Source: Nanobdellota archaeon (GTDB taxonomy: Archaea > Nanobdellota > Nanobdellia > Pacearchaeales > GW2011-AR1). From it: a DNA stretch of 57,486 bases. Shown here piece after piece: positions 3,539 to 55,031 of this stretch (within the stretch, counting starts at the first letter, position 1; each line of letters begins with the position of its first letter). Below the pieces are notes generated by a model. The model was not told the DNA's origin. It did not search any database and worked only from the letters and a program-made list of their open reading frames with translations. Position numbers and translations under genes: made by a program. Location: assembly GCA_038045985.1 (NCBI GenBank), contig JBBSXA010000030.1:1-57486 (forward strand), written 5' to 3'.

Positions 3539-4057
3539 TTATGTGCGTGTCCATGAACATTCGTAATATGAAACATCGCCTTCTTCATCAAGGATTGCAA
3601 GAAGAAGCTTCTTTTTTGTGCTATGAGCCACCCTATTTTTTGCTGCAAATTCCTGCCATGTGAATTTGTTTGATTCTGTGTCTATAAAAACAATCCATTT
3701 TGCATGAGTATCTCCGGGCTTTTTTCCTTTTTCATAAACTCTGAAATCTGCTCCGAATTTTAGCGCTGTTTTGACAATATAGCCTTTATCTCTAAGATCT
3801 TTGAAGACAGTATATTTTGAATAGACTCTTTTATCCAACTTTTGGAGTTTTTTTATTGCCTGCCCTTTATCAAGAATTTTTCCTTTGCTTAAGATTTCCA
3901 GTTTTTCCTTTTCAATTAGGTACAATGCTTCTGTTATCGTGTACTGAATTTTTTCTCCTAGCGGCTCTCCGAAATGGCTTTTTTTGTGAAGAGAGAAAGC
4001 GTCTGCTGAGTTGCTTGTCACAGAGCTTCCTAAAATGTGCGCTTGGATTTTTTCCAT
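3539..4057 (-). CDS. endA: tRNA-splicing endonuclease
   Basis: LRDKGYIVKTALKFGADFRVYEKG...HAKWIVFI...AHSTKKKLLLAI match EndA catalytic-domain motifs. The first ATG is at 4057; the track start at 4078 is a TTG. Confidence 0.85.
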   Translation of the reverse strand: MEKIQAHILGSSVTSNSADAFSLHKKSHFGEPLGEKIQYTITEALYLIEKEKLEILSKGKILDKGQAIKKLQKLDKRVYSKYTVFKDLRDKGYIVKTALKFGADFRVYEKGKKPGDTHAKWIVFIDTESNKFTWQEFAAKNRVAHSTKKKLLLAILDEEGDVSYYECSWTRT

Positions 4058-4109
4058 TGTAAAAAGAATAGAAGGCAATATTTAAAAGTTCCTAGATGAT
4101 TATTGTTTT

Positions 4110-7656: not shown

Positions 7657-9426
7657 CTACTCAAGCACAGCCTTAATTCTTCTTACCCCTGCAGAAACTG
7701 ATTCTTCCTTGATTATTTTGAATTTTCCAATGTCTTTTGTGTTTTTGGCATGAGGGCCTGAGCAAAATTCCTTTGAGAAATTTCCTATAGAATATATTGA
7801 TACAATTTTACCATACTTTTCTTCAAATGAGCCTATTGCTCCTGATTTTTTAGCCTGCTCTAAATTCATTTCTTCTCTTTTTATTTCCAGAGATTTTTTA
7901 ATTTGTTCATTTACAAGATTTTCAATTTGCTTTAGCTCTGATTCTGTCAATTTTCTTTCAAAGTTAAAGTCTAATCTCAATCTTTCTGGAGTTATGTTTG
8001 AGCCTTTCTGGAATATATTTTTATTTTTCAGCACTTGTCTAAGAGCGGTCAAGAGCAAATGCGTTGCTGTGTGAAGTTTTGTTGTTTGCTCAGAATTATC
8101 TGCCAAGCCACTTTTGAATTTTCCTGCAGAGGCTGTTTGAGAAAGTTTTTGATGCTCCTCTAATTTTTTAAAGAATGATTTTTCATCGATATTAATATTT
8201 TTCTCTTCTGCTAATTCTTTTGTCATTTCAAGCGGAAAGCCATAACTTTGATATAATAAAAAGACATTTTCTCCAGATATTCTTTTTTTCTTTTTTGTTA
8301 TGTTATCAAAAAGGCTTAGGCCCTTTTCAAGGGTTTTTTCAAATTTTTCTTCTTCTCTATTTATCTCATTGTAAATAAATTCTCTTTTTTTGTGTATGTC
8401 TTTGTAGTCTGAATAGGTTTCAAATACTTTTTCTGCAATTGGATTTATTAAATTTTGGTCTGTGAGTCCCAATTTTCTTAGGTTGATTATTGCTCTTCTT
8501 ATTAATCTTCTAAGAACGTATCCTTGCTCTTTGTTGCTTGGTATTATTTCTTCTGCTAATATGAATACTGAGGCTTTAATGTGGTCTGCAATTATTCTCA
8601 TTGTTTTTTTATGATCATTGTATTTCCTTTTTGATAACTCTTCAATCTTTTGTATTATGGGCTTCCAGACTTCTGTTTGATAGTTGTCTGTTGTTCCATT
8701 TAAAATTGCTAAAGTTCTTTCAACACCCATTCCTGTATCAACGTTTTTTTGCTTTGCTGGAAGATATTTTCCATTTTCATCTTTAATATACTCCATGAAG
8801 ACGTCATTCCAGATTTCAACCCATTTGTTCCCACCAGTTGCTAAGGTAGAATCATTTGGATTAAACTCTTCAGGTACTTTATTTGATTTATCTTTCCAGT
8901 AAAACATTTCTGTGTCAGGTCCGCAAGGTCCTGTTGTTCCTGCTGGTCCCCACCAATTGTCTTCTTTTCCTAATGGAGTGATTTTGTTAATCCCTAAAGA
9001 TTTCCAAATTTTTTCAGATTCAGTATCTCTCTTTGTAGTTTTATCACCTGCAAAAATTGTAACTGCTAATTTTTCTTTGGGAATTTTAAGCTCTTTTGTT
9101 AAAAACTGGAAACTGAATTCAATAGCTTCTTTTTTCCAGTAGTTTCCTAAAGACCAATTGCCCAACATCTCAAAAAATGTATGATGCGTTTCATCTCCGA
9201 CTTCATCTATGTCGCCGGTTCTTATGCATTTTTGTAGGCTAACTAGATTTTTCCCAAGAGGATGCTTTTGACCTAAAAGATAGGGAACTAAAGGATGCAT
9301 TCCTGCTGTTGTAAACAAAACTGACGGATCTTCTTTTGGAACTAGTGATGAGTTTTCTATACGTTTATGCCCTTTTGATTCAAAGAATTTTATGTACTTT
9401 TCAATAAGCTGTTTGCGGGTTATCAT
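7657..9426 (-). CDS. alaS: alanyl-tRNA synthetase, short bacterial-type form (589 aa, no C-Ala domain)
   Basis: FTTAGMHPLVPYLLG, FFEMLGNWSLGNYWKKEAI, editing-domain HTATHLL and CSGPH motifs. Confidence 0.9.
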   Translation of the reverse strand: MITRKQLIEKYIKFFESKGHKRIENSSLVPKEDPSVLFTTAGMHPLVPYLLGQKHPLGKNLVSLQKCIRTGDIDEVGDETHHTFFEMLGNWSLGNYWKKEAIEFSFQFLTKELKIPKEKLAVTIFAGDKTTKRDTESEKIWKSLGINKITPLGKEDNWWGPAGTTGPCGPDTEMFYWKDKSNKVPEEFNPNDSTLATGGNKWVEIWNDVFMEYIKDENGKYLPAKQKNVDTGMGVERTLAILNGTTDNYQTEVWKPIIQKIEELSKRKYNDHKKTMRIIADHIKASVFILAEEIIPSNKEQGYVLRRLIRRAIINLRKLGLTDQNLINPIAEKVFETYSDYKDIHKKREFIYNEINREEEKFEKTLEKGLSLFDNITKKKKRISGENVFLLYQSYGFPLEMTKELAEEKNINIDEKSFFKKLEEHQKLSQTASAGKFKSGLADNSEQTTKLHTATHLLLTALRQVLKNKNIFQKGSNITPERLRLDFNFERKLTESELKQIENLVNEQIKKSLEIKREEMNLEQAKKSGAIGSFEEKYGKIVSIYSIGNFSKEFCSGPHAKNTKDIGKFKIIKEESVSAGVRRIKAVLE

Positions 9427-27193: not shown

Positions 27194-27706
27194 ATGAAGA
27201 CATTTTTCTTTTTAGGTTTTGGCACTATGCTATTTATTTTAGCAGGTGTACTGACAATTTCTTTCTGGTACGACTTCACTAATAATTGTGAGGACTACCT
27301 TAAGTTGGCCGGAGATGCGCCGACTGTCGAGAAGGCAAACGAGTTTCTTGGGAAAGCATTGGGATTCCTGGAAAACAATGGCCTTACCTCTGGAAATTCA
27401 GCCTTCTTTTTTAAAAAGCCAGATGCTGATATCGGCATTTGGTACAATCAAATTAAAGGGGCTTATTCAACAACGCAGGACATTCTTGAGAGAATGAGAA
27501 ACAGCGCTTCTCCAGTTTCTCAGCTTGAAAAGGACAATGCTCTGATGAAAATCAGGGAAGTTGTTCTTGATGCGGGGAAAAATGGAGTCGAGGTTACTGT
27601 GCCAGCCCACATTAGCTGGTTTCCTCACCAACTTCTCATGCTTTTTCTCTGGACTCTCTCTGTTGGTTTCATTATTTTCGGGTTCGCTATTCTGATAGAG
27701 TGGTGA
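27194..27706 (+). CDS. island membrane protein: N- and C-terminal TM helices flanking a helical ectodomain
   Basis: GGAGG lies 4 nt before the ATG; both ends are hydrophobic. Confidence 0.6.
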   Translation: MKTFFFLGFGTMLFILAGVLTISFWYDFTNNCEDYLKLAGDAPTVEKANEFLGKALGFLENNGLTSGNSAFFFKKPDADIGIWYNQIKGAYSTTQDILERMRNSASPVSQLEKDNALMKIREVVLDAGKNGVEVTVPAHISWFPHQLLMLFLWTLSVGFIIFGFAILIEW

Positions 27707-27748: not shown

Positions 27749-28316
27749 ATGAATCTTTTTTTTCAAATTTGGGGCGGAGTTTTCTATCTTCTGAACAAGA
27801 TTTTTTTCTCCATTTCTGAAAGAAAAGGAAATGAAGAGAGAAAAAGGAAGTGGAAGATAGCAGCATGGTCAGTCTATCTTATAGGACTTCCTGGCTGGCT
27901 TTACATATTGACTTCCAGCAAAGCTTGGATAGTTGCTTCTGTTGAGCTGTGTGGTGCTCCCTCAATGATTGTGGGACTTGCTGCAGCTATAAAGGGAAAT
28001 GAACAAAATTTCCCAGTGGTTTTATTATGTTGCAATGATAGGCTCTGTTTTTGGCATTGCTCTCAGCATCTATGATTTCGGAGGCATTACTAAATGGAGC
28101 CAGGTGGTTGAGCTGGGAGTTGTTGCAGGGTTTCTTTTTGGCTCTTATCTATTGGCTAAAGAGCACGCCTCCGGATATCTCTGGTTCATGCTTATGAATT
28201 CCTCGAATTGCATTCTTATGTATATTCAGGGGAATTTCTACATGGCGTTGCAACAGGCTTTGTCTTTACTTTTTGTTGTTTATTCTTTCTATCTAAGGAA
28301 GAAGCACATCACTTAA
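27749..28316 (+). pseudogene. multi-pass membrane protein split by a frameshift near 27995-28015
   Basis: ORFs 27749..28075 and 27999..28316 overlap in different frames, and both are TM-rich. The join lies in aaagggaaatgaacaaaatttccc. Confidence 0.5.
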
Positions 28317-32662: not shown

Positions 32663-34102
32663 ATGAATATTAATTATGGAGACATGGGTTTTAAGGCTGG
32701 ACTGGAAATTCATCAGCAGCTTGACTCTAAAAAATTGTTCTGCAACTGCCCGAGCATTTTAAGAGGAGACACCCCCAGCTTTGAGATTAAGAGAAAATTG
32801 CATACTGTTGCGGGCGAATCTGGAGAAATTGATGTTGCAGCAGAGCACGAAGCTGCTCTTGACAGGGAGTTTGTTTATCAGGCTTACGATACTACATGCC
32901 TGGTTGAGCTGGATGAAGAGCCTCCCCATGAAATAAATAAAGATGCGTTAATGACTGCTTTGCATATTTCTCTTTTGATGAATGCCAAGATAATTCCAAT
33001 TTCACAGATAATGAGGAAGACGGTTATTGATGGAAGCAATACTGGAGGTTTTCAGAGAACTGTGATGATTGCCAGGGATGGTTTTATTGAGACTTCTTAT
33101 GGAAATGTTCGAATTTTAGGAATTTTTCTTGAAGAAGATTCTGCCAGACTTGTTTTGAAAGATGAAAAAAGCGCTGTTTACAGGCTTGACAGGCTTGGAA
33201 TTCCTTTAATTGAAATTGCCACAGAGCCTGATTTGAAAAATGCAGAACACGCAAAAGAAACTGCTTTGAAAATTGGAGAGATACTTAGAGCGTGCAAAGT
33301 AAAAAGAGGAATTGGAACTATTAGACAGGACATTAATATTTCTATAAAAGGAAGCAATAGAGTTGAGCTTAAAGGCTTTCAAGATCCTAAAATAATGTTG
33401 AAGAGTATTGAAGAAGAAGTAAGAAGGCAGCTGGCTTATGTTGGCGCTGGAAAAAAAAATTCTTCTGAAGTCAGAAATGTTTTGCCTAATGGAAGTTCTG
33501 AGTTTATGAGGCCGATGCCTGGTGCAGACAGAATGTATCCTGAAACTGATCTTCCTTTGCTGAAAATTCCATTGGATTTTATTAATAGCGCTAAGAAAAA
33601 CTTGCCTAGGCTAAGAGAAGAAATTGAAGAAGAATTAAGAAATCAGGGGCTTAGCCAGGAATATATTTCTATTCTTTTGAAATCTAATGAGATTGAAAAG
33701 TACAAAGAACTTTATTATATTGTTCCAAAGCCAAATTTTGTTGCAAAGGCTGTTTTGGTTTTTCCAAAAGAGATTGCCGCGAAAAAAGGGATTGCATTTG
33801 AAAGGGTTTTAGAAATACTCGATGAGCATTATTTTGAAGTTTTTAATAAAGTTGCCCAGGGAAAACTCAAAGAAGAAGATGTGAAGCATATTTTTGAGAG
33901 GCTTGTTGATGGAAAGAGTTTTTCCGAAGCTGCGAAACTTGACAAGCTTAGCGTGAATGATTTGGAAGAAGCTGTCCTTAAAATTATGAAAAGCAAGCCA
34001 GGACTTTCAGAGAATGCTTATATGGGGTTGGTTATGAGGGAGCTTAGAGGAAAAATTAGTGGAAAAGAAGCGAGCGAAATAATAAAGAAACTTATGCACT
34101 AA
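32663..34102 (+). CDS. gatE: Glu-tRNA(Gln) amidotransferase subunit E (short form)
   Basis: GLEIHQQLDSKKLFCNCPS, a GatB/E catalytic core and a C-terminal YqeY-like tail MGLVMRELRGK. The ATG at 32663 is preferred to the TTG at 32624. Confidence 0.88.
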   Translation: MNINYGDMGFKAGLEIHQQLDSKKLFCNCPSILRGDTPSFEIKRKLHTVAGESGEIDVAAEHEAALDREFVYQAYDTTCLVELDEEPPHEINKDALMTALHISLLMNAKIIPISQIMRKTVIDGSNTGGFQRTVMIARDGFIETSYGNVRILGIFLEEDSARLVLKDEKSAVYRLDRLGIPLIEIATEPDLKNAEHAKETALKIGEILRACKVKRGIGTIRQDINISIKGSNRVELKGFQDPKIMLKSIEEEVRRQLAYVGAGKKNSSEVRNVLPNGSSEFMRPMPGADRMYPETDLPLLKIPLDFINSAKKNLPRLREEIEEELRNQGLSQEYISILLKSNEIEKYKELYYIVPKPNFVAKAVLVFPKEIAAKKGIAFERVLEILDEHYFEVFNKVAQGKLKEEDVKHIFERLVDGKSFSEAAKLDKLSVNDLEEAVLKIMKSKPGLSENAYMGLVMRELRGKISGKEASEIIKKLMH

Positions 34103-34136
34103 TTTTTCTGCAGCTTCGTCCAAGCGTGGCCAAATC

Positions 34137-34193
34137 AGAGGAAAGATTTCAGGGAGCGAGGCTGTTGAAATAATCAGGAAGCTGATGAAGTGA
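34137..34193 (+). repeat. Ghost copy of the GatE C-terminus (RGKISGSEAVEIIRKLMK*), +1 frame relative to gatE
   Basis: Compare the real end RGKISGKEASEIIKKLMH*. Many differences are synonymous. It is preceded by tcgtccaagcgtggccaaat (34116-34135). Confidence 0.7.
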
Positions 34194-37752: not shown

Positions 37753-37786
37753 ATAATTTAATAAATGTTATTTTTCTATCTCTATT

Positions 37787-37846
37787 ATGCAACGCTCATA
37801 CGTTTCAGAAATAAAGGCAGGGAATGATGTTTTACTTAAGGGATGA
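37787..37846 (+). pseudogene. Orphan copy of the aspS 5' end (MQRSYVSEIKAGNDVLLKG*)
   Basis: 55/60 nt identical to 39185-39244 (47/48 over the first 48 nt). The repeat starts exactly at the ATG. Confidence 0.85.
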
Positions 37847-39184
37847 TTAACTATACTATATCATCTTAAAGAAATAGGTTAAACTATACGATATGATAGT
37901 AAAGTTTATAAACTCTGAAATTATGTAATATTCATGGATGTTGAGTCTGAGTTTTACAAGCAAAATCCCTGGTGGGAAGGAAAATTTGAAGAAAAAAGCA
38001 TATCTAGGGATATTTATTTGAATGAGATATTCAGGAATATGAAAAGTAAAGAGATTATATTTTTAACAGGATTAAGAAGAATTGGAAAAACTACTATTTT
38101 AATGCAAATAATAAGGCGACTATTAACCAACACAAAACCTGAAGATGTTCTCTTTATAAGGCTAGACTCTTTTAATTTATTAGAGTATTCAATTCATCAA
38201 TTAGTTGAAGAATACAGGAAAATTCATAAGAAGTCTGTTTTAGATTTTTTTTATTTGTTTTTAGATGAAGTCACCTCTAGGGGTAATTTTGAACAAGAAT
38301 TAAAGAGTTTATATGACAACGAAAATATAAAGGTTATCTGTTCTTCATCAATTGCTACCTTCATGAGGGACAAAAAAGCCAGTCTTACCGGCAGAACAAA
38401 AACAATCGAGGTAATGCCCTTGACTTTCCAGGAATTTTTAAAATTTAAGGGGGCAAAGATAGGCAAAGCAGATAAATCAAAACTAGAAAGCTATTTCAAA
38501 GATTATTTGAAAATTGGTGGAATTCCCCATTATGTCTTGACAGAAGATAGGGCTTATTTAAACGAATTAGTTGAGAGCATTGTCTACAAAGATATAATTG
38601 CATATCATAAAATATCTGGAGAAAAAGCTGTAAAAGAATTATTTGTGCTGTTATGCCAAAGAGTTGGAAAGCCAATGAGCTATAATAAACTTGCAGAATT
38701 ATTAAAGATTTCAGTAGATAGTGTTAAGAGATATGTTGGTTATTTTGAAAAAGCATATTTATTTTATGTGGTTGATAGATATTCTAAATCTGCAAATGAG
38801 AAAGTAACATCCCCCAAAAAAATCTATATTGGTGACGTTGGTATAAAAAATATTATAACTGAATTTAAGGATTTGGGAGCAAGTTATGAAAACCTCGTAT
38901 TCTTAAAAATTAAAAGTAAAAATCCAAATTATTATCTGGAAAATTCAATAGAGATAGATTTTATTACAAAAGATAGCTTAATTGAGGCAAAATATAACCA
39001 AGAGCTTAATGAAAAGCAATTGGAAGCTTTTAACGCTATAAAATCAAAGAATAAGATTATAGCTAATGGATATAAGTTTTTTTTAGACTGATTTTACTTG
39101 ATTAATTTTTTTGCTTTATTTTCTTTCTTTTCCTAGTTTTTCCTAAGCAAATATATTTAAAAAATGTTGTTCTTTAGTGTTTTC
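37847..39184 (+). mobile_element. 1.34 kb insertion carrying only a DUF4143 AAA+ ATPase gene, bounded by the duplicated aspS 5' end
   Basis: Direct repeats at 37787-37846 and 39185-39244; no integrase or transposase lies inside. Confidence 0.6.
37934..39091 (+). CDS. AAA+ ATPase with a C-terminal DUF4143 (PD-(D/E)xK-like) domain, COG1373 type
   Basis: NPWW, LTGLRRIGKTT (Walker A), LFLDEV (Walker B), LTGRT, GGIPHY, and C-terminal EIDFI...LIEAKY. Confidence 0.8.
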   Translation: MDVESEFYKQNPWWEGKFEEKSISRDIYLNEIFRNMKSKEIIFLTGLRRIGKTTILMQIIRRLLTNTKPEDVLFIRLDSFNLLEYSIHQLVEEYRKIHKKSVLDFFYLFLDEVTSRGNFEQELKSLYDNENIKVICSSSIATFMRDKKASLTGRTKTIEVMPLTFQEFLKFKGAKIGKADKSKLESYFKDYLKIGGIPHYVLTEDRAYLNELVESIVYKDIIAYHKISGEKAVKELFVLLCQRVGKPMSYNKLAELLKISVDSVKRYVGYFEKAYLFYVVDRYSKSANEKVTSPKKIYIGDVGIKNIITEFKDLGASYENLVFLKIKSKNPNYYLENSIEIDFITKDSLIEAKYNQELNEKQLEAFNAIKSKNKIIANGYKFFLD

Positions 39185-40477
39185 ATGCAACGCTCATATG
39201 TTTCAGAAATAAAGGCAGGGAATGATGTTTTAATCAAAGGATGGGTTCATGAATTAAGAGTTCTTAGTAAGATGGCTTTTATTCTGCTGAGAGACAGTTC
39301 TGGGATTGTTCAGTGTGTTGTTAAGGATAAAGATGTTTCTAATACGACTTTGGAAAGTGTTGTTGAAATAAGGGGAAAAGCAAAACCTGCCAAAGTTAAG
39401 GCTGAAGGTGTTATAGATGATGTTGAGATTGATGTTTCTGAAATTAATATTTTGAGCAAGGCAGATAAACTGCCTATTCAGGTTAATGAAAAAGCTGTCA
39501 GCTCTGAGTTGTCTAATAGATTGGATTGGAGATCTTTAAGCTTGAGAATACCTCGGTCAAGAGCTATATTCAAAGTTCAGGCTAAAATAGTTGAAGGTAT
39601 GCAAGAATATCTTAATCATAATGGATTTTTGCAGGTTTTTACGCCATGCCTGATGGGGGTTGCTTCAGAATCAGGCAGTGAAGCATTTGAAGTAAAATAT
39701 TTCAATACTAAAGCTTATTTGAGACAGGATCCTCAGCTTCACAGGCAGCTGACTATCTTAGGAGGCATAGAAAAGATTTATGATATTGGGCCTAGCTGGA
39801 GGGCTGAGAATAGCAATACAATAAAGCATTTATGCGAGCATAGGACTTGCGCTGTTGAAATGGCTTTTATAGAATCTGAAAGAGATGTTATGAGAGTTGA
39901 AGAGCAGGTTATTATTTCTGCTTTTGAAAAGGTAAATAAAGAGTGTAGGAAAGAATTGGAGATTTTTGGAATTGAGTTGAAAACTCCTAAAGCACCATTT
40001 CTTGAATTTAATTTCCCAGAAATTTATGATATTTTGAAAAAGTTAGGAAAGAAAATTAAAGAAGGAGAAGATTTAGACTCAGAAGCTGAAAAATTGTTTT
40101 GGGGATATGTGCAAAAAAAGCATCCTGGAACAGAGTTCTATTTTGTAAATAAGTTCCCGTTTAAGGAAAAACCATTTTATGTTTATTGTGATGAAAAAAG
40201 CGAATATGCAAGAAGCACTGATCTTTATTATAAAGGAATGGAGATGTCTTCTGGTGGACAGAGGGAAAATCGCTACGCTAAACTCATTAAAAATGTTGAA
40301 GAGAAAAAAGTGCCTTTAAAGTCTGTTGAGTGGTTCACTAAATTCTTTAAGTACGGAGCTCCAACTCACGGAGGATTTGCTTTGGGAGTAGAAAGAATAA
40401 CAATGATGCTTCTTGGAGTGGAAAACATAAGAGAGGCTGTTTTGTTTCCGAGAGATCCTGGGAGATTGACGCCTTAA
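39185..40477 (+). CDS. aspS: aspartyl-tRNA synthetase, archaeal type
   Basis: Class IIb motifs and C-terminal GGFALGVERITMMLLGVENIREAVLFPRDPGRLTP. The ATG at 39185 matches the duplicated native start. Confidence 0.9.
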   Translation: MQRSYVSEIKAGNDVLIKGWVHELRVLSKMAFILLRDSSGIVQCVVKDKDVSNTTLESVVEIRGKAKPAKVKAEGVIDDVEIDVSEINILSKADKLPIQVNEKAVSSELSNRLDWRSLSLRIPRSRAIFKVQAKIVEGMQEYLNHNGFLQVFTPCLMGVASESGSEAFEVKYFNTKAYLRQDPQLHRQLTILGGIEKIYDIGPSWRAENSNTIKHLCEHRTCAVEMAFIESERDVMRVEEQVIISAFEKVNKECRKELEIFGIELKTPKAPFLEFNFPEIYDILKKLGKKIKEGEDLDSEAEKLFWGYVQKKHPGTEFYFVNKFPFKEKPFYVYCDEKSEYARSTDLYYKGMEMSSGGQRENRYAKLIKNVEEKKVPLKSVEWFTKFFKYGAPTHGGFALGVERITMMLLGVENIREAVLFPRDPGRLTP

Positions 40478-40505: not shown

Positions 40506-40646
40506 TTAAATATTATTCCATATTTCGTCTTCTTCGTTATCCCATAGTTTTTTTAGAGATATCTCGCTTAATTTTAATATATCTTTGAAATCATCTCTTA
40601 TTTTTTTGGATATTTTCTTATCAGAACTAGTTATCCTTTTTTTCAT
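40506..40646 (-). CDS. tiny ORF (46 aa) between aspS and asnS, antitoxin-like in flavour
   Basis: MKKRITSSDKKISKKIRDDFKDILKLSEISLKKLWDNEEDEIWNNI; below the track cutoff. Support is weak. Confidence 0.25.
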   Translation of the reverse strand: MKKRITSSDKKISKKIRDDFKDILKLSEISLKKLWDNEEDEIWNNI

Positions 40647-40741: not shown

Positions 40742-42037
40742 ATGACAACAAAATTTATATCAATTTCAGAAGCCATGCATAAAAAAAGCGGGAAAGTAGC
40801 TGTGCGGGGATGGGTGTACAGGGAAAGAGGTTCGAACGCTTTGAAGTTCATTGTTCTCAGGGATTCTTCAGATATAATTCAGTGTGTTTTGAAAAAAGAG
40901 AATTTTGAAAAGCAATGGCAGGAGATAGACAAATTGCAGGTTGAAGCTTCTCTTGAAATTGAAGGGACTATAAAAGAAGACAAAAGAGCTCCAACTGGCT
41001 ATGAAATTTCTGTTGAGAAGATAAATATTGTTGGATTAAGTGATTCATTTCCCATAAACAAAGATTTGAATGAAGAGCTTTTGGGAGACAGAAGGCATTT
41101 GTGGATAAGAAGCAGGAAGATGACTGCAATTCTTAAAATAAGAAGCACTGTTATGCAGTCTTTCAGGGATTATTTTAGAGAAAAAGGTTTTTATGAGTTT
41201 CAAAGCCCTATAATAATTCCAGGAGGAGCTGAAGACGGACCTACAATGTTTGAATTGAATTATTTTGGAAAGAAAATGCATCTTTGCCAGACATGGCAGT
41301 TATATGCTGAAGCTGCAATTTATGGTCTTGAAAAAATATATGGAATAGGTCCAACATTCAGAGCTGAAAAATCAAAAACTTCTAGGCATTTGACAGAGTT
41401 CTGGATGGCTGAAATGGAAGTCGCCTGGGCAAATCTTGATGATATAATGGATTATGCTGAAAATATGACTAAGTATATTATAAAAAAAGTTATGGAAAAA
41501 AATAAGAAAGAGTTGGAAATTTTAGAGAGAGATATTAAAAAGCTTGAACCTAGTTTGAAAAAGAAATTTCCTAGAATAACTTATGATGAGGCTTTGAAAG
41601 AATTAAAGAAAAAGAAAATTAGTGTTCCTTGGGGGAAAGATTTGAGAACTATTGAGGAAGAAAAGCTTATGGAAGAGCGCGATACGCCGATTTTTGTCAC
41701 ACACTACCCTAAAGAAGCAATGGCTTTTTACAAACCCAAGGATCCTAAAAATCCAAAAGTGGCTTTATGCTTTGATATGTTGGGACCTGAAGGAAATGGT
41801 GAGTTAATTGGTGGAAGTCAGAGAGATACTGATATTGAAGAATTGAAGAAAGCCTTGAAAGCTAAAGGAGAAAAATTGGAAGATTATAGCTATTATTTTG
41901 ATATTCATTCTTATGGTGTTGTTCCTCATGCTGGTTTTGGCTTAGGTCCAGAGAGGCTGATAAAATGGATTTGCGGTTTAGACACAGTTAAAGATGCTAT
42001 TGCATTTCCCAGGACGATGACACGAATGAAGCCGTAA
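40742..42037 (+). CDS. asnS: asparaginyl-tRNA synthetase
   Basis: GPTFRAEKSKTSRHLTEFWMAEME, GGSQRDTD, HAGFGLGPERLIKWICGL...AIAFPRTMTRMKP. Confidence 0.88.
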   Translation: MTTKFISISEAMHKKSGKVAVRGWVYRERGSNALKFIVLRDSSDIIQCVLKKENFEKQWQEIDKLQVEASLEIEGTIKEDKRAPTGYEISVEKINIVGLSDSFPINKDLNEELLGDRRHLWIRSRKMTAILKIRSTVMQSFRDYFREKGFYEFQSPIIIPGGAEDGPTMFELNYFGKKMHLCQTWQLYAEAAIYGLEKIYGIGPTFRAEKSKTSRHLTEFWMAEMEVAWANLDDIMDYAENMTKYIIKKVMEKNKKELEILERDIKKLEPSLKKKFPRITYDEALKELKKKKISVPWGKDLRTIEEEKLMEERDTPIFVTHYPKEAMAFYKPKDPKNPKVALCFDMLGPEGNGELIGGSQRDTDIEELKKALKAKGEKLEDYSYYFDIHSYGVVPHAGFGLGPERLIKWICGLDTVKDAIAFPRTMTRMKP

Positions 42038-42849: not shown

Positions 42850-43653
42850 ATGAAAATTCTAGTCATTGGCGATCCACATGGGGCAATTGAAAATGTTAGA
42901 AAAGCTCCTGTGAAAGGTGTTGATTTAATTCTATTAACTGGGGATATTGGAAAAGCTGATTTGGCAAGAAAAAGATATTTTGAAAATATTGAAAGAAAAC
43001 AAAAAGGATTAGATGAATTAGAATATGATGGAAAATTTGCAAAACAGGTTCATCAACAAATTCATAATTCTACGATTGAGATATTAAAATATTTATCAAG
43101 ATACGCACCAGTTTATTCTTTACAGGGAAATGTTGGAATTCCTACACTTTCAGATGTTAAAAAAGATTATAAAAAATATGGAATAAAACTTGCTTCAACA
43201 AGGGAAAAAGTTGATTCTATGAAAAATGTTAATCTGGTAAAAAATAGGGTGAGAATAATTGATGGATTAAGGATTGGGTTTTTAGAATATTTTGTTGATA
43301 CAAATTGGGTTCAGGATTTTAAGCCATCTGATTATAAAAAGAGATTGAAGAAGGCTAAAATGGCTACAGATAAAGCAAGGGACGTTCTGAAAAGATTTGG
43401 CAATCTTGATATTTTAGTTTGTCATCAGCCTCCTTATGGTTATTTAGATAAGGTTAGCGGAAAATTTGGCGCTCCAAAAAGCTGGCAAGGAAAACATGCA
43501 GGCAGTAAGGTAATTTTAGAATATATAAAAAAATATCAACCAAAATATGTTTTTTGCGGTCATATACATGAAGGCAGAGGAAGAGTGAAAATCGGAAAAA
43601 CACAGGTTTACAATATGGGATTTAACGGAGAGCATATAGTTGTAAATATCTGA
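42850..43653 (+). CDS. calcineurin-like metallophosphoesterase
   Basis: VIGDPHG, LTGDIGK, GNVG, VCHQPPYG, GHIHEG. Confidence 0.8.
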   Translation: MKILVIGDPHGAIENVRKAPVKGVDLILLTGDIGKADLARKRYFENIERKQKGLDELEYDGKFAKQVHQQIHNSTIEILKYLSRYAPVYSLQGNVGIPTLSDVKKDYKKYGIKLASTREKVDSMKNVNLVKNRVRIIDGLRIGFLEYFVDTNWVQDFKPSDYKKRLKKAKMATDKARDVLKRFGNLDILVCHQPPYGYLDKVSGKFGAPKSWQGKHAGSKVILEYIKKYQPKYVFCGHIHEGRGRVKIGKTQVYNMGFNGEHIVVNI

Positions 43654-43661
43654 TTAAAAAA

Positions 43662-43685
43662 ATCATCTATGCTTTATCTGATTAG
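43662..43685. repeat. Left direct repeat of the vapBC cassette; on the minus strand it is a ghost of the Zn-ribbon gene end (QIKHR*)
   Basis: atcatctatgctttatctgattag versus 44322-44345 atcacctatgctttatctgaatag (22/24). Confidence 0.75.
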
Positions 43686-43725
43686 AACAGAAACATTTAT
43701 ATATAAATTATAAATTATAATTTAT

Positions 43726-43941
43726 ATGAAGACAATAGCATTAAAGGAAAGAACTTTTGAGATGATTAGGGAGCTTAAAGAGAAAGAAAAAGCAGAGTCT
43801 TTTGACAAATTGATAGCAGAGCTAATCATGCACAAAGAAAAGATTCCTAAATCTATGTTTGGAGCTTTGAAGGGAAAAACAAAAAGCTTTACTAGAAAAG
43901 AGAGGGAAGAAATTATGGGGGATGACAAAAGGTGGCGATAG
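43726..43941 (+). CDS. vapB: VapB-type antitoxin
   Basis: 71-aa charged protein whose ORF overlaps the downstream PIN gene by 10 nt. Confidence 0.6.
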   Translation: MKTIALKERTFEMIRELKEKEKAESFDKLIAELIMHKEKIPKSMFGALKGKTKSFTRKEREEIMGDDKRWR

Positions 43942-44309
43942 TTTTTGACACTTATGCATGGATAGAATATTTTAACGCCACAAAAAAAGGGAATACTGTT
44001 AAAACATATCTTGAAGAAGAAAAAATTATTACCCCTACAATTGTTCTTTTAGAATTAAGCTATAAATCAAGCAAAGAGGGATGGGATTTTAGCAAATATT
44101 TAAGTTTTATAAAAGCTAATTCTACTATTGTTGGGTTTAATGAAAAATTCATTTTTACATTCGGGAAATCTTACAATGATATTAAACAACAAGTTAAAGG
44201 CATTGGAATTACAGACATTATAATAATCCATACTGCAATAATGAATGATGCCAAAATTTTGACGGGGGATGAACATTTCAAGAATGTAGATAGTGCTGTT
44301 ATGCTTTAG
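43932..44309 (+). CDS. vapC: PIN-domain toxin
   Basis: IVFDTYAWIEY, ITDIIIIHTA, ILTGDEHF (acidic PIN residues); GTG start. Confidence 0.8.
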   Translation: MAIVFDTYAWIEYFNATKKGNTVKTYLEEEKIITPTIVLLELSYKSSKEGWDFSKYLSFIKANSTIVGFNEKFIFTFGKSYNDIKQQVKGIGITDIIIIHTAIMNDAKILTGDEHFKNVDSAVML

Positions 44310-44321
44310 CCCTTTGCCTTA

Positions 44322-44345
44322 ATCACCTATGCTTTATCTGAATAG
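44322..44345. repeat. Right direct repeat of the vapBC cassette, overlapping the real 3' end of the Zn-ribbon gene
   Basis: See 43662-43685. Confidence 0.75.
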
Positions 44346-44556
44346 TGCAGTCAGCACAGACAACTTCGACCTTTTTTGTTGCGGGGTTTGCCACAAAATT
44401 GTACAAGTAAGGCTTCAGAACCTTGTTGCACTTTATGCATTTGTTCTTTTGGTCAAGGACTGCCTGCCTGTTGTTTGAAACTTTCATTTCCACAGGCTTC
44501 AAATTCCTGTCTTTCAATGCTCTAAGGTAATTAGAGTTGCCCATTTCTTCTGCCAT
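44323..44556 (-). CDS. small zinc-ribbon protein
   Basis: CIKC...CADC cysteine pairs. Confidence 0.5.
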   Translation of the reverse strand: MAEEMGNSNYLRALKDRNLKPVEMKVSNNRQAVLDQKNKCIKCNKVLKPYLYNFVANPATKKVEVVCADCTIQIKHR

Positions 44557-49489: not shown

Positions 49490-50041
49490 TTATGCGTTTA
49501 ATTTTTCCGGCTTTATCATTTTTTTATTTCCATACACGTCAAAGTAGAGAATATTATCTAAAAGTATTTTTTCCTTTTTTTCTGGTTTTTTTACTTCATA
49601 CCCAATCGGAAAAATTGCCTCCACTTCGAGATCTTCTGGAATCTTTAATGCTCTTTTTATCTGGCTTTCTACAAAATATCCTATCCAGCATGTTGAAAGG
49701 CCTTTTTCAGTCAAGCTTAACCAGAAGTTTTGCATTGCTGCTCCTGTCTGTTGTTTCACATATTTCTCGCCGTCTTTGTAAGTTTTTTTTGTTCTTTCTG
49801 GCTTTGAGCAGAACACAACAATGCACTTTACTTGGCCTACAAAATTCTGCTGGGTTGCTCTTGAGATTATCTCTATTTTTTCAGGATCTCTGACAATTAT
49901 TGCTTTTAATGTGAAAATATTTCCAGCCATTGGAGAAAATCTTGCAGAATCAACAGCTTCTATGATGTCTCGCCAGTCTGGTTCTGTGCTTTTGAACTTT
50001 CTGACAGAATGCCTCTCTTTAAGAACTTTTTGAAAATCCAT
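49490..50041 (-). CDS. nitroreductase-family protein
   Basis: LKERHSVRKFKS... N-terminal signature; size typical of the family. Confidence 0.75.
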   Translation of the reverse strand: MDFQKVLKERHSVRKFKSTEPDWRDIIEAVDSARFSPMAGNIFTLKAIIVRDPEKIEIISRATQQNFVGQVKCIVVFCSKPERTKKTYKDGEKYVKQQTGAAMQNFWLSLTEKGLSTCWIGYFVESQIKRALKIPEDLEVEAIFPIGYEVKKPEKKEKILLDNILYFDVYGNKKMIKPEKLNA

Positions 50042-50386: not shown

Positions 50387-51714
50387 CCAAATGCTATAAT
50401 TCCGCCGCCTAGACATTTTTTATCTTGGTAAAGAACAATTGCCTGACCTTCAGAAACCCCTGTAATTGGTTTTTTTAGAGTTACTTTTAATTTTTTGTTT
50501 TTTAGTTCGAGTATTGATGGAAGAAGCTCTCCGACTTGGCGGATTCTTGATAGGACCTTGGTGGATTTCTTTCTCCCACCACCAACTCCCCGACCGCCCA
50601 CCCTAAAATTAGGTTCGCTATCGCTCACATATTTACTATTAATTGTTAATGCATTATCATTCTTTGAATTTTTATTATTCCCATTATTTTTTGAAATACT
50701 ATCTAAAGGATTGTTGTTTATCCAATGGACATTTTTTATGAAGACATCTTTTCTGAAGTTTAGATTATGGCCTTCCGGAGCAGCAATTATTGTGTTTGTT
50801 TTAAGAATTTTTCTTGCAACATACCATTTTTTTTGAGCTCCAAAACCTCTTTTCACCTCGATTTCGTATCTTGGGCCAATTCTCTGGCCGATTGTGTAGT
50901 AATAGATTCCATCATGCTCTCCAATCTGTTTTCCTTCTGGATCGAGGATTTTCCCTTTTTTTGGCTTTATCTTTTTCTGGAGGAATCTTTTCAAATTGAC
51001 TTTTCCAATAAAGCAGATTCCTACAGTTGATTTTTTGTCATAATTTGGAAATTTGTTTTTGTGCGCTATTTCTCTCACTTGGGATTTTGTTAAATTTCCT
51101 ATTGGGAACAAAACTTTTGATAATTCTTTTTGTTTTAACCTATAAAGAAAATAAGATTGGTCTTTTGATTCGTCTTTTGCACGAAGGAGTTCATAATGAT
51201 AGTCCATCCCGTCACCATCTCCCCGACCACCCTCCCTTACTTTATTATTAATCAAACTATCTTTTTTCAAATTAACATACTTATTTTTTAATATTAATCT
51301 TTTTGGGCTAATTTTTTTAGAAATTTCATTTATCCTTGCGTAGTGCCCTGTTGCTATAAAATCGCATTTTAGCTTCTTTGCTTCTTTCAATAACAATGGG
51401 AACTTTACTTTTTCATTGCAGTCTATGTCTGGATTAGGAGTTATTCCTTTTTTGTAAAGCTTATACATCTTATCTACAACAAGTTTTCTGTATTGTTTTT
51501 CGAAATCTAGAGTTATCAAAGGAATGTTTAATATTGTTGCGATTTTTTGCGCCATTCTTCTTTCTCCTCTCCATGTACATTCTCCAATATCATTTTTTGT
51601 GTCGCTCCAATTTTTCATGAATGCTCCAATTACTTCATGACCTTGTTTTTTTAGAAGAAGCGCCGCTATACTTGAATCAACTCCGCCAGACATTGCGAGA
51701 AGAATTTTTGGCAT
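50383..51714 (-). CDS. mnmA: tRNA 2-thiouridine(34) synthase MnmA, with two low-complexity insertions
   Basis: LLAMSGGVDSSIAALLLKKQGHEVIGAFM (PP-loop), ATGHYAR, KDQSYFL. Confidence 0.88.
   Translation of the reverse strand: MPKILLAMSGGVDSSIAALLLKKQGHEVIGAFMKNWSDTKNDIGECTWRGERRMAQKIATILNIPLITLDFEKQYRKLVVDKMYKLYKKGITPNPDIDCNEKVKFPLLLKEAKKLKCDFIATGHYARINEISKKISPKRLILKNKYVNLKKDSLINNKVREGGRGDGDGMDYHYELLRAKDESKDQSYFLYRLKQKELSKVLFPIGNLTKSQVREIAHKNKFPNYDKKSTVGICFIGKVNLKRFLQKKIKPKKGKILDPEGKQIGEHDGIYYYTIGQRIGPRYEIEVKRGFGAQKKWYVARKILKTNTIIAAPEGHNLNFRKDVFIKNVHWINNNPLDSISKNNGNNKNSKNDNALTINSKYVSDSEPNFRVGGRGVGGGRKKSTKVLSRIRQVGELLPSILELKNKKLKVTLKKPITGVSEGQAIVLYQDKKCLGGGIIAFG
50573..50604 (-). repeat. GC-rich in-frame mini-insertion, copy A (encodes RVGGRGVGGG)
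   Basis: tcccaccaccaactccccgaccgcccacccta; 26/32 identical to copy B. Confidence 0.7.
51207..51238 (-). repeat. GC-rich in-frame mini-insertion, copy B (encodes REGGRGDGDG)
   Basis: tcccgtcaccatctccccgaccaccctccctt. Confidence 0.7.
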
Positions 51715-52617: not shown

Positions 52618-52820
52618 TCTATGTCCTTTATAGAATTAATCTTTTTTGTTTTTCCACTTTTAATATCTTTTTCACTTTCTTCGATTTGTCTCATAGTATC
52701 TTCATTTGAATAAATCATGATGCTTTTTAAAGCAGAGTCGAGTTCTTTTTTTGTCACCATGGATTGTTCTATTATTTTTAGTTTTCTAGACAACTCTTCT
52801 ATATTAATTGTTTTTTCCAT
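52614..52820 (-). CDS. antitoxin partner of RelE-like toxin
   Basis: 68-aa acidic ORF, translationally coupled to the toxin. Confidence 0.5.
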   Translation of the reverse strand: MEKTINIEELSRKLKIIEQSMVTKKELDSALKSIMIYSNEDTMRQIEESEKDIKSGKTKKINSIKDIE

Positions 52821-54656: not shown

Positions 54657-55031
54657 ATGAAAAGGGAATACGCGAAAAATCTGACATCAGAGCAGGCGAG
54701 AGTCTTGCTTTACAAGGAAACTGAAAGATCTGGAACTGGAAAATTTTTGCATAACAAGAAAAAAGGGGATTACAGATGTGCTGCCTGTGGAAATATTTTG
54801 TTTAAGAGTGATGTGAAATTTGATTCTGGGACTGGATGGCCGAGCTTTTCAGATGCTGTCAAAGGCTCTATAAAACTGGAGAAAGATTATTCTTTGCTTA
54901 TTCCAAGGACAGAAGTCATTTGCGCAAAGTGTGGAGGGCATTTAGGGCATGTTTTTAATGACGGGCCAAGTCCAACAAAAAAAAGATACTGCATTAATTC
55001 TTGCGCTTTGGGGTTTGATGAGAAGAAGTAA
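54657..55031 (+). CDS. msrB: peptide-methionine (R)-S-oxide reductase
   Basis: CAACGNILF, GTGWPSF, CAKCGGHLGHVF, RYCINS. Confidence 0.9.
   Translation: MKREYAKNLTSEQARVLLYKETERSGTGKFLHNKKKGDYRCAACGNILFKSDVKFDSGTGWPSFSDAVKGSIKLEKDYSLLIPRTEVICAKCGGHLGHVFNDGPSPTKKRYCINSCALGFDEKK

Follow-up and report, generated by a model that had tools for sequence, protein, structure and literature searches.

The window analysed here is a stretch of 57,486 nt, read on the forward strand, of contig JBBSXA010000030.1 (assembly GCA_038045985.1) from a Nanobdellota archaeon (GTDB lineage Archaea; Nanobdellota; Nanobdellia; Pacearchaeales; GW2011-AR1). Between a metallophosphoesterase gene (MPE) and a small, convergent Zn-ribbon gene (ZnR) it carries a vapBC-like toxin–antitoxin (TA) pair, and this pair is flanked by a short direct repeat, one copy of which is the 3′ end of ZnR itself. 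The genome, designated G000, is a metagenome-assembled genome (MAG) of 889,329 bp in 45 contigs with 33.6% GC and belongs to the DPANN archaea (Woese/Pacearchaeota-like). The population originates from Hainich groundwater, and its relatives carry the labels Woese-, Pace- or Nanoarchaeota.

Comparisons were performed with 401 genomes of the same family, covering 191 genera. Other G numbers denote genomes of relatives and L numbers their loci (G200 = L098, G156 = L096, G020 = L018, G358 = L113, G164 = L142), while C numbers (C5, C11, C17, C21, C32, C38) denote contigs of G000. AsnRS is used as the label for the asparaginyl-tRNA synthetase gene.

The two 24-nt words ATCATCTATGCTTTATCTGATTAG (43662-43685) and ATCACCTATGCTTTATCTGAATAG (44322-44345) are identical at 22 of 24 positions, as a first-pass annotation of this DNA had stated, and a repeat search extended the pair to 30 nt with 26 matches and a start-to-start distance of 660 nt. 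The cores of the two copies share an exact stretch of 15 nt, CTATGCTTTATCTGA. Translation confirmed the earlier reading of both copies as QIKHR-stop on the minus strand with a synonymous AGA/AGG difference; over the extended pair, a second synonymous difference (TGT/TGC) and two replacements were found. The right copy is the live end of ZnR and the left copy is an orphan starting 8 nt past the MPE stop codon (43651-43653), also in agreement with that annotation. The 636 nt between the 24-mers contain vapB and vapC as the only genes, as had been described, together with a promoter-like stretch.

With up to three mismatches allowed, the repeat word matched twice in the window, compared with zero matches expected from 100 shuffles, and across the whole genome (889 kb) these were the only copies. 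Neither terminator-like sites nor significant folds were found at the two copies (fold z-scores from −0.2 to 1.1), so that the common terminator-like word considered in the first-pass annotation gave way to a word that is unique and unstructured. Two occurrences of the 10-mer TATCTGATTA lie 28 nt apart, one at the MPE stop (43647-43656) and one within the orphan (43675-43684); at the corresponding place the live copy has TATCTGAATA, which may be due to chance or may be the trace of a local rearrangement.

Coordinates of all features at the locus are given in Table 1. VapC matched PF01850 with E = 5.1e-12 (46.9 bits, cut-off 23.6) and the NCBIfam VapC equivalog with E = 2e-9 (37.6 bits, below the cut-off of 80), and its translation contains the acidic quartet D6, E41, D95 and D113. 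Family matches of VapB were weak, with both DUF7557 of Pfam (21.7 bits) and VAPB_antitox (17.1 bits) remaining below the cut-off. The two genes co-occur in all sibling loci. By sequence criteria (PIN domain, overlapping small antitoxin, pair kept together), the pair is a type II VapBC module, and it resembles what is generally known of such modules, in which the antitoxin gene overlaps the PIN toxin gene, the pair has its own promoter, and the distribution among close relatives is patchy.

Table 1. Features of the vapBC locus and order of the neighbouring genes in the window.
Feature	Position	Strand	Remarks
AsnRS paralogue	39164..40477		first in the neighbour order
AsnRS	40742..42037
253-aa gene		-	between AsnRS and MPE
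Metallophosphoesterase gene (MPE), left neighbour	42850..43653	+	Pfam Metallophos, E = 1.4e-14; orthologues with 53-79% identity in relatives
Orphan copy of ZnR 3′ end	43661..43690	-	C S N Q I K H R stop; abuts left border of cassette
Putative cassette promoter region, AGAAAC ATTTATATATAAATTATAAATTATAATTTAT	43688..43725	+	AT-rich, B recognition element (BRE)/TATA-like; conserved in sibling cassettes
vapB-like antitoxin gene	43726..43941	+	71 aa; overlaps vapC by 10 nt
vapC PIN toxin gene	43932..44309	+	125 aa; GTG start; Pfam PF01850
Spacer from vapC stop to live repeat	44310..44320	.	11 nt
Live repeat copy	44321..44350	-	last ZnR codons C T I Q I K H R, stop and 2 nt past stop
Zn-ribbon gene (ZnR)	44323..44556	-	77 aa; CxxC...CxxC; convergent with vapC
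Biotin-lipoyl-like (BLP) gene			follows ZnR
Metallo-beta-lactamase (MBL)-fold gene			follows BLP gene
DHH gene			follows MBL-fold gene

ZnR is a patchy member of a conserved AsnRS/phosphoesterase/MBL gene cluster. It matched no Pfam or NCBIfam family, an exact-sequence look-up yielded no closer relative, and a word-based search of 5.8 billion proteins returned the query alone.

The vapBC unit, comprising its own putative promoter, the antitoxin and the PIN toxin, is about 630 nt long. In a DNA alignment of 12 lineages, identity to the window was 60-93% from about position −45 of the vapB ATG to the vapC stop and dropped to 20-40% directly outside both borders, with the orphan ending exactly where cassette homology starts. 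Comparison of the region 43688-43725 with L038, L096, L098, L113 and L018 showed that it is conserved and that the homology of the cassettes begins there; it presumably acts as the cassette promoter.

A search with VapB detected the pair in 39 of the 401 genomes and 33 of the 191 genera, with VapB identities of 58-85%, and a scan of species-representative genomes added further Woese-, Pace- and Nanoarchaeota MAGs. Within the AsnRS-paralogue/AsnRS/MPE/BLP/MBL cluster vapBC was found at six or more junctions; its positions include AsnRS paralogue/AsnRS, AsnRS/MPE, MPE-like/MBL, AsnRS/ZnR and MPE/ZnR, as well as unrelated places. No integrase, transposase, terminal inverted repeat or attC was found in or beside the cassette, no inverted repeat pairs its two ends, and the siblings share no end motif beyond the promoter. 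Matches to PF00589 (tyrosine recombinase) in the genome were confined to contigs C32 and C38, and no viral carrier of the cassette was found in IMG/VR.

A profile built from three ZnR homologues detected the gene in 24 of the 401 genomes, nearly always within the same cluster, where its usual neighbours are AsnRS, MPE, MBL or DHH genes. Four of these genomes represent sites without the cassette. In G187, an MPE orthologue (62% identity) converges on ZnR with 17 nt between the stop codons; in G153, which has the closest AsnRS, AsnRS and ZnR converge with overlapping stop codons; in G164, AsnRS and ZnR are separated by 44 nt; and in G259, ZnR abuts an MPE-like gene. A phosphoesterase convergent with ZnR in the absence of vapBC was the empty site that the first-pass annotation had suggested looking for, and G187 provides it. 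Its 17-nt spacing fits the geometry of the window (8 nt), at a distance at which the two sites are not alignable base by base. The closest MPE relatives, L027-L030 (76-79%), were considered as a further empty site and rejected, as they have neither vapBC nor ZnR.

The sharp homology borders, the variety of junctions and the empty sites all support the earlier proposal that the TA pair is a discrete cassette at the 3′ terminus of a gene. The repeat is very probably a scar left when the cassette was inserted at the ZnR terminus.

The 44-nt AsnRS/ZnR spacer of G164 (L142 1443-1486) contains TAGAAACACTT, similar to the start of the cassette promoter in G358, TAGAAACATTT; this could be a remnant of a lost cassette or microhomology.

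Occupied sites beside ZnR were found in three genomes. G000 and G020 both have the order MPE-vapBC-ZnR, and G358, of the same genus as G164 and G259, has the order AsnRS-vapBC-ZnR with abutting stop codons of vapC and ZnR. In both G020 and G358 vapBC stands beside the convergent ZnR without repeats. No orphan was found in the flanks of G020 either by eye or by Smith-Waterman comparison, and a resemblance to TTTAGG..TATT in the 97-nt vapC-ZnR spacer of this genome was judged not significant. A highly acidic small open reading frame (ORF) with runs of D and E follows ZnR in L018 (4341-4416; G020) and L113 (~3930-4100; G358, where the stretch is partly masked by N); the window does not have it.

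Phylogenetic comparison separated the G020 cassette from that of the window. In the AsnRS tree, G000 was grouped with G200 and G020 (bootstrap 94 and 87), and in the tree of VapB and VapC, G000 stood beside G156, with G020 far off. Approximately unbiased (AU) tests on the VapBC alignment rejected G000 and G020 as sisters (p = 0.046) as well as a host clade (p = 0.008). Identities to G000 for AsnRS were 85% in G153, 81% in G200, 77% in G020 and 68% in G156. The corresponding values for VapB and VapC were 77 and 69% in G200, 68 and 54% in G020, and 85 and 79% in G156, and no cassette was detected in G153. The C-terminus of ZnR is of the type IRHR in G156, PKKRx in G153 and G020, and QIKHR in both the live and the orphan copy of the window.

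A relative with vapBC at this place and without repeats was named by the first-pass annotation as evidence against its proposal. G020 is formally such a relative, and the trees reject vertical orthology of its cassette. Because the sister relation is rejected, the cassettes of G000 and G020 are most simply separate acquisitions next to ZnR; judged from the sequences, that of G020 looks like an independent arrival and not a vertical orthologue.

Similar scars were found at sibling cassettes. The two flanks of every cassette locus were compared against shuffled controls, and three loci stood out: the window (Smith-Waterman, flank versus flank, z = 9.4-9.6), L038/L106 and G200. The L038/L106 cassette, from a Hainich MAG, has a mazEF-like pair on one side and AsnRS on the other. 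Here an orphan of the first ~29 AsnRS codons (~87 nt), MTEEKFISISEAIKQGSGKVSVRV followed by a stop, abuts the promoter, and the live AsnRS begins at an ATGA overlap with the vapC stop. In G200, the live 3′ end of an AsnRS paralogue, NIREATLFPRDRRRLTP-stop, lies upstream of the cassette, the repeat is 54-60 nt long, and the orphan, SIREVTLFPRDRRRLTP-stop, begins at the vapC stop, with a second TA pair after it. A decayed orphan was present in G156 at the same position as in G200.

An empty counterpart of L038 is L043, in which AsnRS comes immediately after the mazEF-like pair. This junction is colinear with the mazEF-orphan junction of L038 and, by this comparison, the orphan sits in the ancestral context. 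The sequences of L043, L038 live and L038 orphan showed 12, 12 and 13 differences in 57 nt and are about equidistant. A three-taxon comparison of this kind cannot root the tree, and relative branch lengths alone were used; since the three sequences are equidistant, the orphan branch is not longer than the live branch.

The three vapBC scars duplicate unrelated sequences, namely the 3′ end of ZnR, the 5′ end of AsnRS and the 3′ end of an AsnRS paralogue, and they also differ in how the cassette is oriented with respect to the live gene end. The adjacency on the live side of each scar was also encountered elsewhere: vapBC followed by AsnRS in L102 and L122, vapBC beside the convergent ZnR in G020 and G358, and the AsnRS paralogue followed by vapBC in L102 and L122, and in L106 with a mazEF-like pair between them.

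Two side observations concern further TA genes at these junctions. In G200 (L098 2264-2931), the orphan is succeeded by another promoter-like stretch and another TA-like pair of two genes (81 aa and 91 aa), a layout that corresponds to a cassette array with copies of the gene end between the cassettes. In the window, the gap between AsnRS and its paralogue holds a lone ORF of 46 aa (40506-40646, minus strand), whose C-terminus, LWDNEEDEIWNNI, is similar to that of the mazE-like antitoxin at the same junction of L038, ELWDNKEDVEWENA; this ORF may be a remnant of another TA cassette.

A scan of the whole genome for direct repeats 200-4000 nt apart showed the same kind of scar at other cargo. In the window, 37787-37845 and 39185-39243 are identical at 55 of 59 positions (extended by BLAST to 95 nt at 85%, 37753-37845 / 39151-39243) and flank an AAA_14/DUF4143 ATPase gene (385 aa, 37934-39091) in the 5′ end of the AsnRS paralogue. 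This repeat comprises the first 19 codons of the paralogue and a more diverged upstream leader, and its orphan reads MQRSYVSEIKAGNDVLLKG-stop. On contig C17, the last 16 codons of a 311-aa gene (49959-50006 / 51380-51427) flank a second AAA_14/DUF4143 ATPase gene; the copies are identical over 41 of 41 nt and then differ as GCG TTT TAG and GCC TTC TAA, all three differences being synonymous.

On contig C11, the 3′ end of a 310-aa dockerin-like gene (27396-27449 / 28063-28122) is duplicated with a 28/28 core and an in-frame indel. Both copies read YLIGKQKEA..NVNAE and have the same stop, and the cargo is a minus-strand TA-like pair of a PBECR2-family nuclease and a DUF2283-like partner. On C21, a promoter region (1521-1555 / 2063-2097, 33/35) flanks a ParE toxin/antitoxin pair, and on C38, a 5′ leader ending just before each start codon (7934-7961 / 8898-8925, 27/28) flanks two small genes. 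The survey of other TA loci for terminal duplications that had been proposed earlier was thus positive, with the TA pairs on C11 and C21 and, in addition, the two ATPases. Scar lengths were 26-30 nt at the locus studied here, ~87 nt in L038, 54-60 nt in G200, and 28-95 nt at other cargo.

A related case in the window is a ghost C-terminus of gatE (34043-34193), IRGKISGSEAVEIIRKLMK-stop, located 30 nt past the live stop (LRGKISGKEASEIIKKLMH-stop). Ghost and live end differ by 9 synonymous and 5 replacement codons, and the stop is kept. The 26-nt insert motif of gatE, TTCTGCAGCTTCGTCCAAGCGTGGCC, occurs once in the window, at 34106-34131; a link to the vapBC locus was considered and rejected, as the 26-mer is not near that locus. 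On contig C5, a near-identical leader of ~59 nt (52644-52702 / 54937-54996) precedes ribosomal protein L37Ae-like and Spt5/NusG-like genes; read on the minus strand, it has at its end an ATG that would add MVSSRFQM. This may be a shared regulatory leader and not an insertion scar.

Codon differences between live and orphan copies were counted in seven pairs. The null simulation represented an in-situ copy, with 80% of the changes placed at random in the orphan and 20% placed as synonymous changes in the live gene. The seven pairs together showed 33 synonymous and 19 replacement codons, compared with 44 replacements expected under the null (P < 0.001), and the synonymous excess also held with a 50:50 split in the simulation. 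G200 alone yielded 8 synonymous and 2 replacement codons with the stop kept (P < 0.001), its orphan having an intact frame of 18 codons and a stop although 14 of 54 nt differ. The four cassettes of G000 combined yielded 8 and 3, respectively (P = 0.002). Given this class-wide bias, the behaviour of the two copies is that of alleles whose divergence took place while each still served as a working gene end, and not that of a copy and its decaying twin; this sequence-level statement applies to the class of scars as a whole.

For the mechanism, we lean slightly towards homology-anchored recombination, either as homology-facilitated illegitimate recombination (HFIR) or as a single crossover; both the mechanism and the assignment of one copy to the donor are what we infer from the sequence patterns. 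The starting state would have been MPE and the small ZnR gene converging almost stop to stop. DNA from a related archaeon, in which vapBC already adjoined a ZnR gene, would have paired homologously within the recipient's ZnR as the anchor, and its promoter-side end would have been joined without homology ~27-30 nt within the 3′ end of the recipient's gene. Integration of a circularised fragment, with the gene end on it, by a single crossover would be an equivalent route. In either case, the donor would have supplied the complete gene end, now the live right copy, and the displaced end of the recipient would have stayed as an untranslated orphan beside the phosphoesterase stop.

Two copies with the character of working alleles are expected if incoming DNA brings the cassette plus part of the neighbouring gene. 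The model would also account for the live-side junction always being an adjacency known elsewhere, and for the cassette staying in one conserved cluster at shifting positions and beside ZnR in varied contexts. With intergenic gaps of 0-20 nt, joints falling in the gap would give clean insertions, as in G020 and G358, and joints falling in the replaced gene end would leave orphans. As the orphan shares the QIKHR type of the live end, donor and recipient would be close relatives.

Several observations weigh against this mechanism. The bases shared at the presumed illegitimate joint are CAG/AG, only 2-3 nt; at the L038 joint, TAyAGArAG is shared. Orphan and live end are both QIKHR, and an in-situ copy fits this locus equally well; the ZnR pair taken alone shows 2 synonymous and 2 replacement codons (P = 0.30), a comparison with no power. 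Random illegitimate joins would not obviously produce cassette borders that are sharp and identical in many contexts, and the perfect cores of 28/28 (C11) and 41/41 (C17), with the differences clustered at one end, form a mosaic that the simple model does not predict. No empty site was found in the same species or a close relative, and three further Hainich contigs with an identical phosphoesterase (99.98-100% identical) are all occupied. Neither HFIR nor natural DNA uptake is known from DPANN archaea.

Some of these points count in favour of a classical target-site duplication, in which the cassette would have been pasted into a staggered cut of ~26-30 nt in the last ZnR codons, the gaps filled, and the orphan left to drift. 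The cut would have been made by an element-encoded or trans-acting transposase or integrase, or would have come about through end-joining at offset nicks. The repeats abut the cassette borders exactly, the same sharp borders recur in many contexts, the C11 and C17 pairs have perfect cores, the 2:2 split at ZnR fits neutral drift, and orphan and live end are of one allele type. Against this, the lengths range from 26 to ~95 nt, unlike a fixed stagger, and transposase, terminal inverted repeat and conserved end motif are all absent. The class-wide synonymous bias (P < 0.001), the L038 orphan branch that is not longer than the live one, and the intact 18-codon frame and stop of the G200 orphan point in the same direction. 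Target-site duplication is unlikely. The first-pass annotation had proposed target duplication preserving the reading frame: the frame and length of ZnR are indeed kept, and a transposon-type duplication probably does not describe the mechanism here, in view of the variable lengths and the synonymous bias.

We see as a rather improbable alternative a dedicated DPANN process of gene-end "docking". Such a process, so far unrecognised, would act at the very ends of genes, copy 25-95 nt of these in an integron-like manner without attC, and would load defence-type cargo (TA pairs, DUF4143 ATPases) into ultra-compact genomes with genes left unbroken.

Little probability remains for vapBC as an old, vertical resident of the junction, with the orphan produced later and independently by slippage, template switching, partial tandem duplication plus deletion or a similar local event. 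G020 shares the MPE-vapBC-ZnR order without repeats, and the 10-mer TATCTGATTA at the MPE stop and in the orphan could mediate a local rearrangement. Nevertheless, the VapBC tree rejects both G000 and G020 as sisters and the host clade, and the closest AsnRS relatives, G153 and G200, do not have this arrangement. Furthermore, the orphan ends exactly where cassette homology starts, and the recurrence of border-hugging duplications at independent cassettes and cargo is not explained by a chance event.

Site-specific integration is very unlikely. The repeats would represent attL and attR of a circular vapBC mini-element whose attP mimics the gene 3′ end, and a tyrosine recombinase would act in trans, as with an integron or a miniature integrative element. 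Restoration of a gene 3′ end by the element is the geometry of many integrative elements, the copies share the exact 15-nt core CTATGCTTTATCTGA, two PF00589-type recombinase genes occur elsewhere in the genome, and integrons are reported in Archaea (PMC9668308). On the other hand, the vapBC scars duplicate unrelated sequences in differing orientations, and there is therefore no common att site. The repeat follows the vapC stop after just 11 nt, too few for an attC, and no inverted repeat or hairpin was found in this interval. In addition, no recombinase gene lies near the locus on the 57-kb contig, and the genome has no further occurrence of the repeated word.

Chance similarity or a shared functional word (terminator or regulatory site) is effectively refuted: short AT-rich matches are common in an AT-rich genome, but none of the 100 shuffles gave two matches, the word is unique and shows neither a terminator-like site nor a fold, and the match keeps both the coding frame and the stop codon in register.

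Homology-anchored recombination, the mechanism favoured above, resembles several known systems. HFIR (de Vries & Wackernagel 2002; Prudhomme et al. 2002; Meier & Wackernagel 2003, as cited in PMC5361080) likewise combines one-sided homology, here in a conserved neighbour gene, with a join lacking homology at the opposite end. Foreign cargo becomes trapped beside the anchor, no element-encoded enzyme is needed, and the junction positions are variable. Demonstrations of HFIR come solely from bacteria capable of natural transformation and from conjugation in E. coli (PMC3240628), whereas for the uncultured DPANN archaea considered here it is deduced from scars. A further difference is that the illegitimate joint here would lie within the terminus of the anchor gene and leave a short orphan end, not a deletion.

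An analogous model has been published for effector-immunity arrays belonging to type VI secretion systems (T6SS) and for Rhs orphans (Kirchberger et al. 2017, PMC5361080), and orphan modules of Rhs and contact-dependent inhibition (CDI) systems are attributed there to Jackson et al. 2009. In these systems, the incoming module brings its own conserved gene end, the resident end is displaced as an untranslated orphan downstream, and repeated events build arrays, to be compared with vapBC, orphan and second TA pair in G200. Their anchor, however, is the conserved body of the toxin gene and their cargo its variable tip plus the immunity gene, whereas the anchor here is an unrelated neighbour (ZnR, AsnRS or its paralogue) and the cargo a whole TA operon or an ATPase gene. 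The orphans here are, moreover, only 26-95 nt long.

Integrative elements and integron cassettes share with this locus the direct repeats flanking the insert, the restored gene end and the TA pair as typical cassette cargo. They differ in that no integrase, attC or shared att core is present here and the repeat length is variable. With regard to vapBC loci in general, we know of no standard description that includes a duplicated coding end of a neighbour or confinement to one housekeeping cluster at shifting positions. Taken together, the term recombination scar, with one gene end displaced, suits the feature better than target-site duplication, and the recurrence of the scar suggests that inserted genes enter by recombining through neighbouring gene ends.

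DPANN genomes are tiny and gene-dense, with gaps of a few bases and few recognisable mobile elements, and yet their accessory genes vary strongly. The scars offer a testable account of how self-contained modules such as TA pairs and ATPases may enter without destroying their neighbours, with the arriving DNA supplying a neighbour's end of its own and the old end left behind, and they constitute sequence-level evidence of DNA exchange and recombination between related groundwater DPANN lineages. An orphan gene end abutting cargo is a bioinformatic marker by which acquisitions can be dated and oriented. If the process were enzyme-directed, it would represent a new class of gene-capture system.

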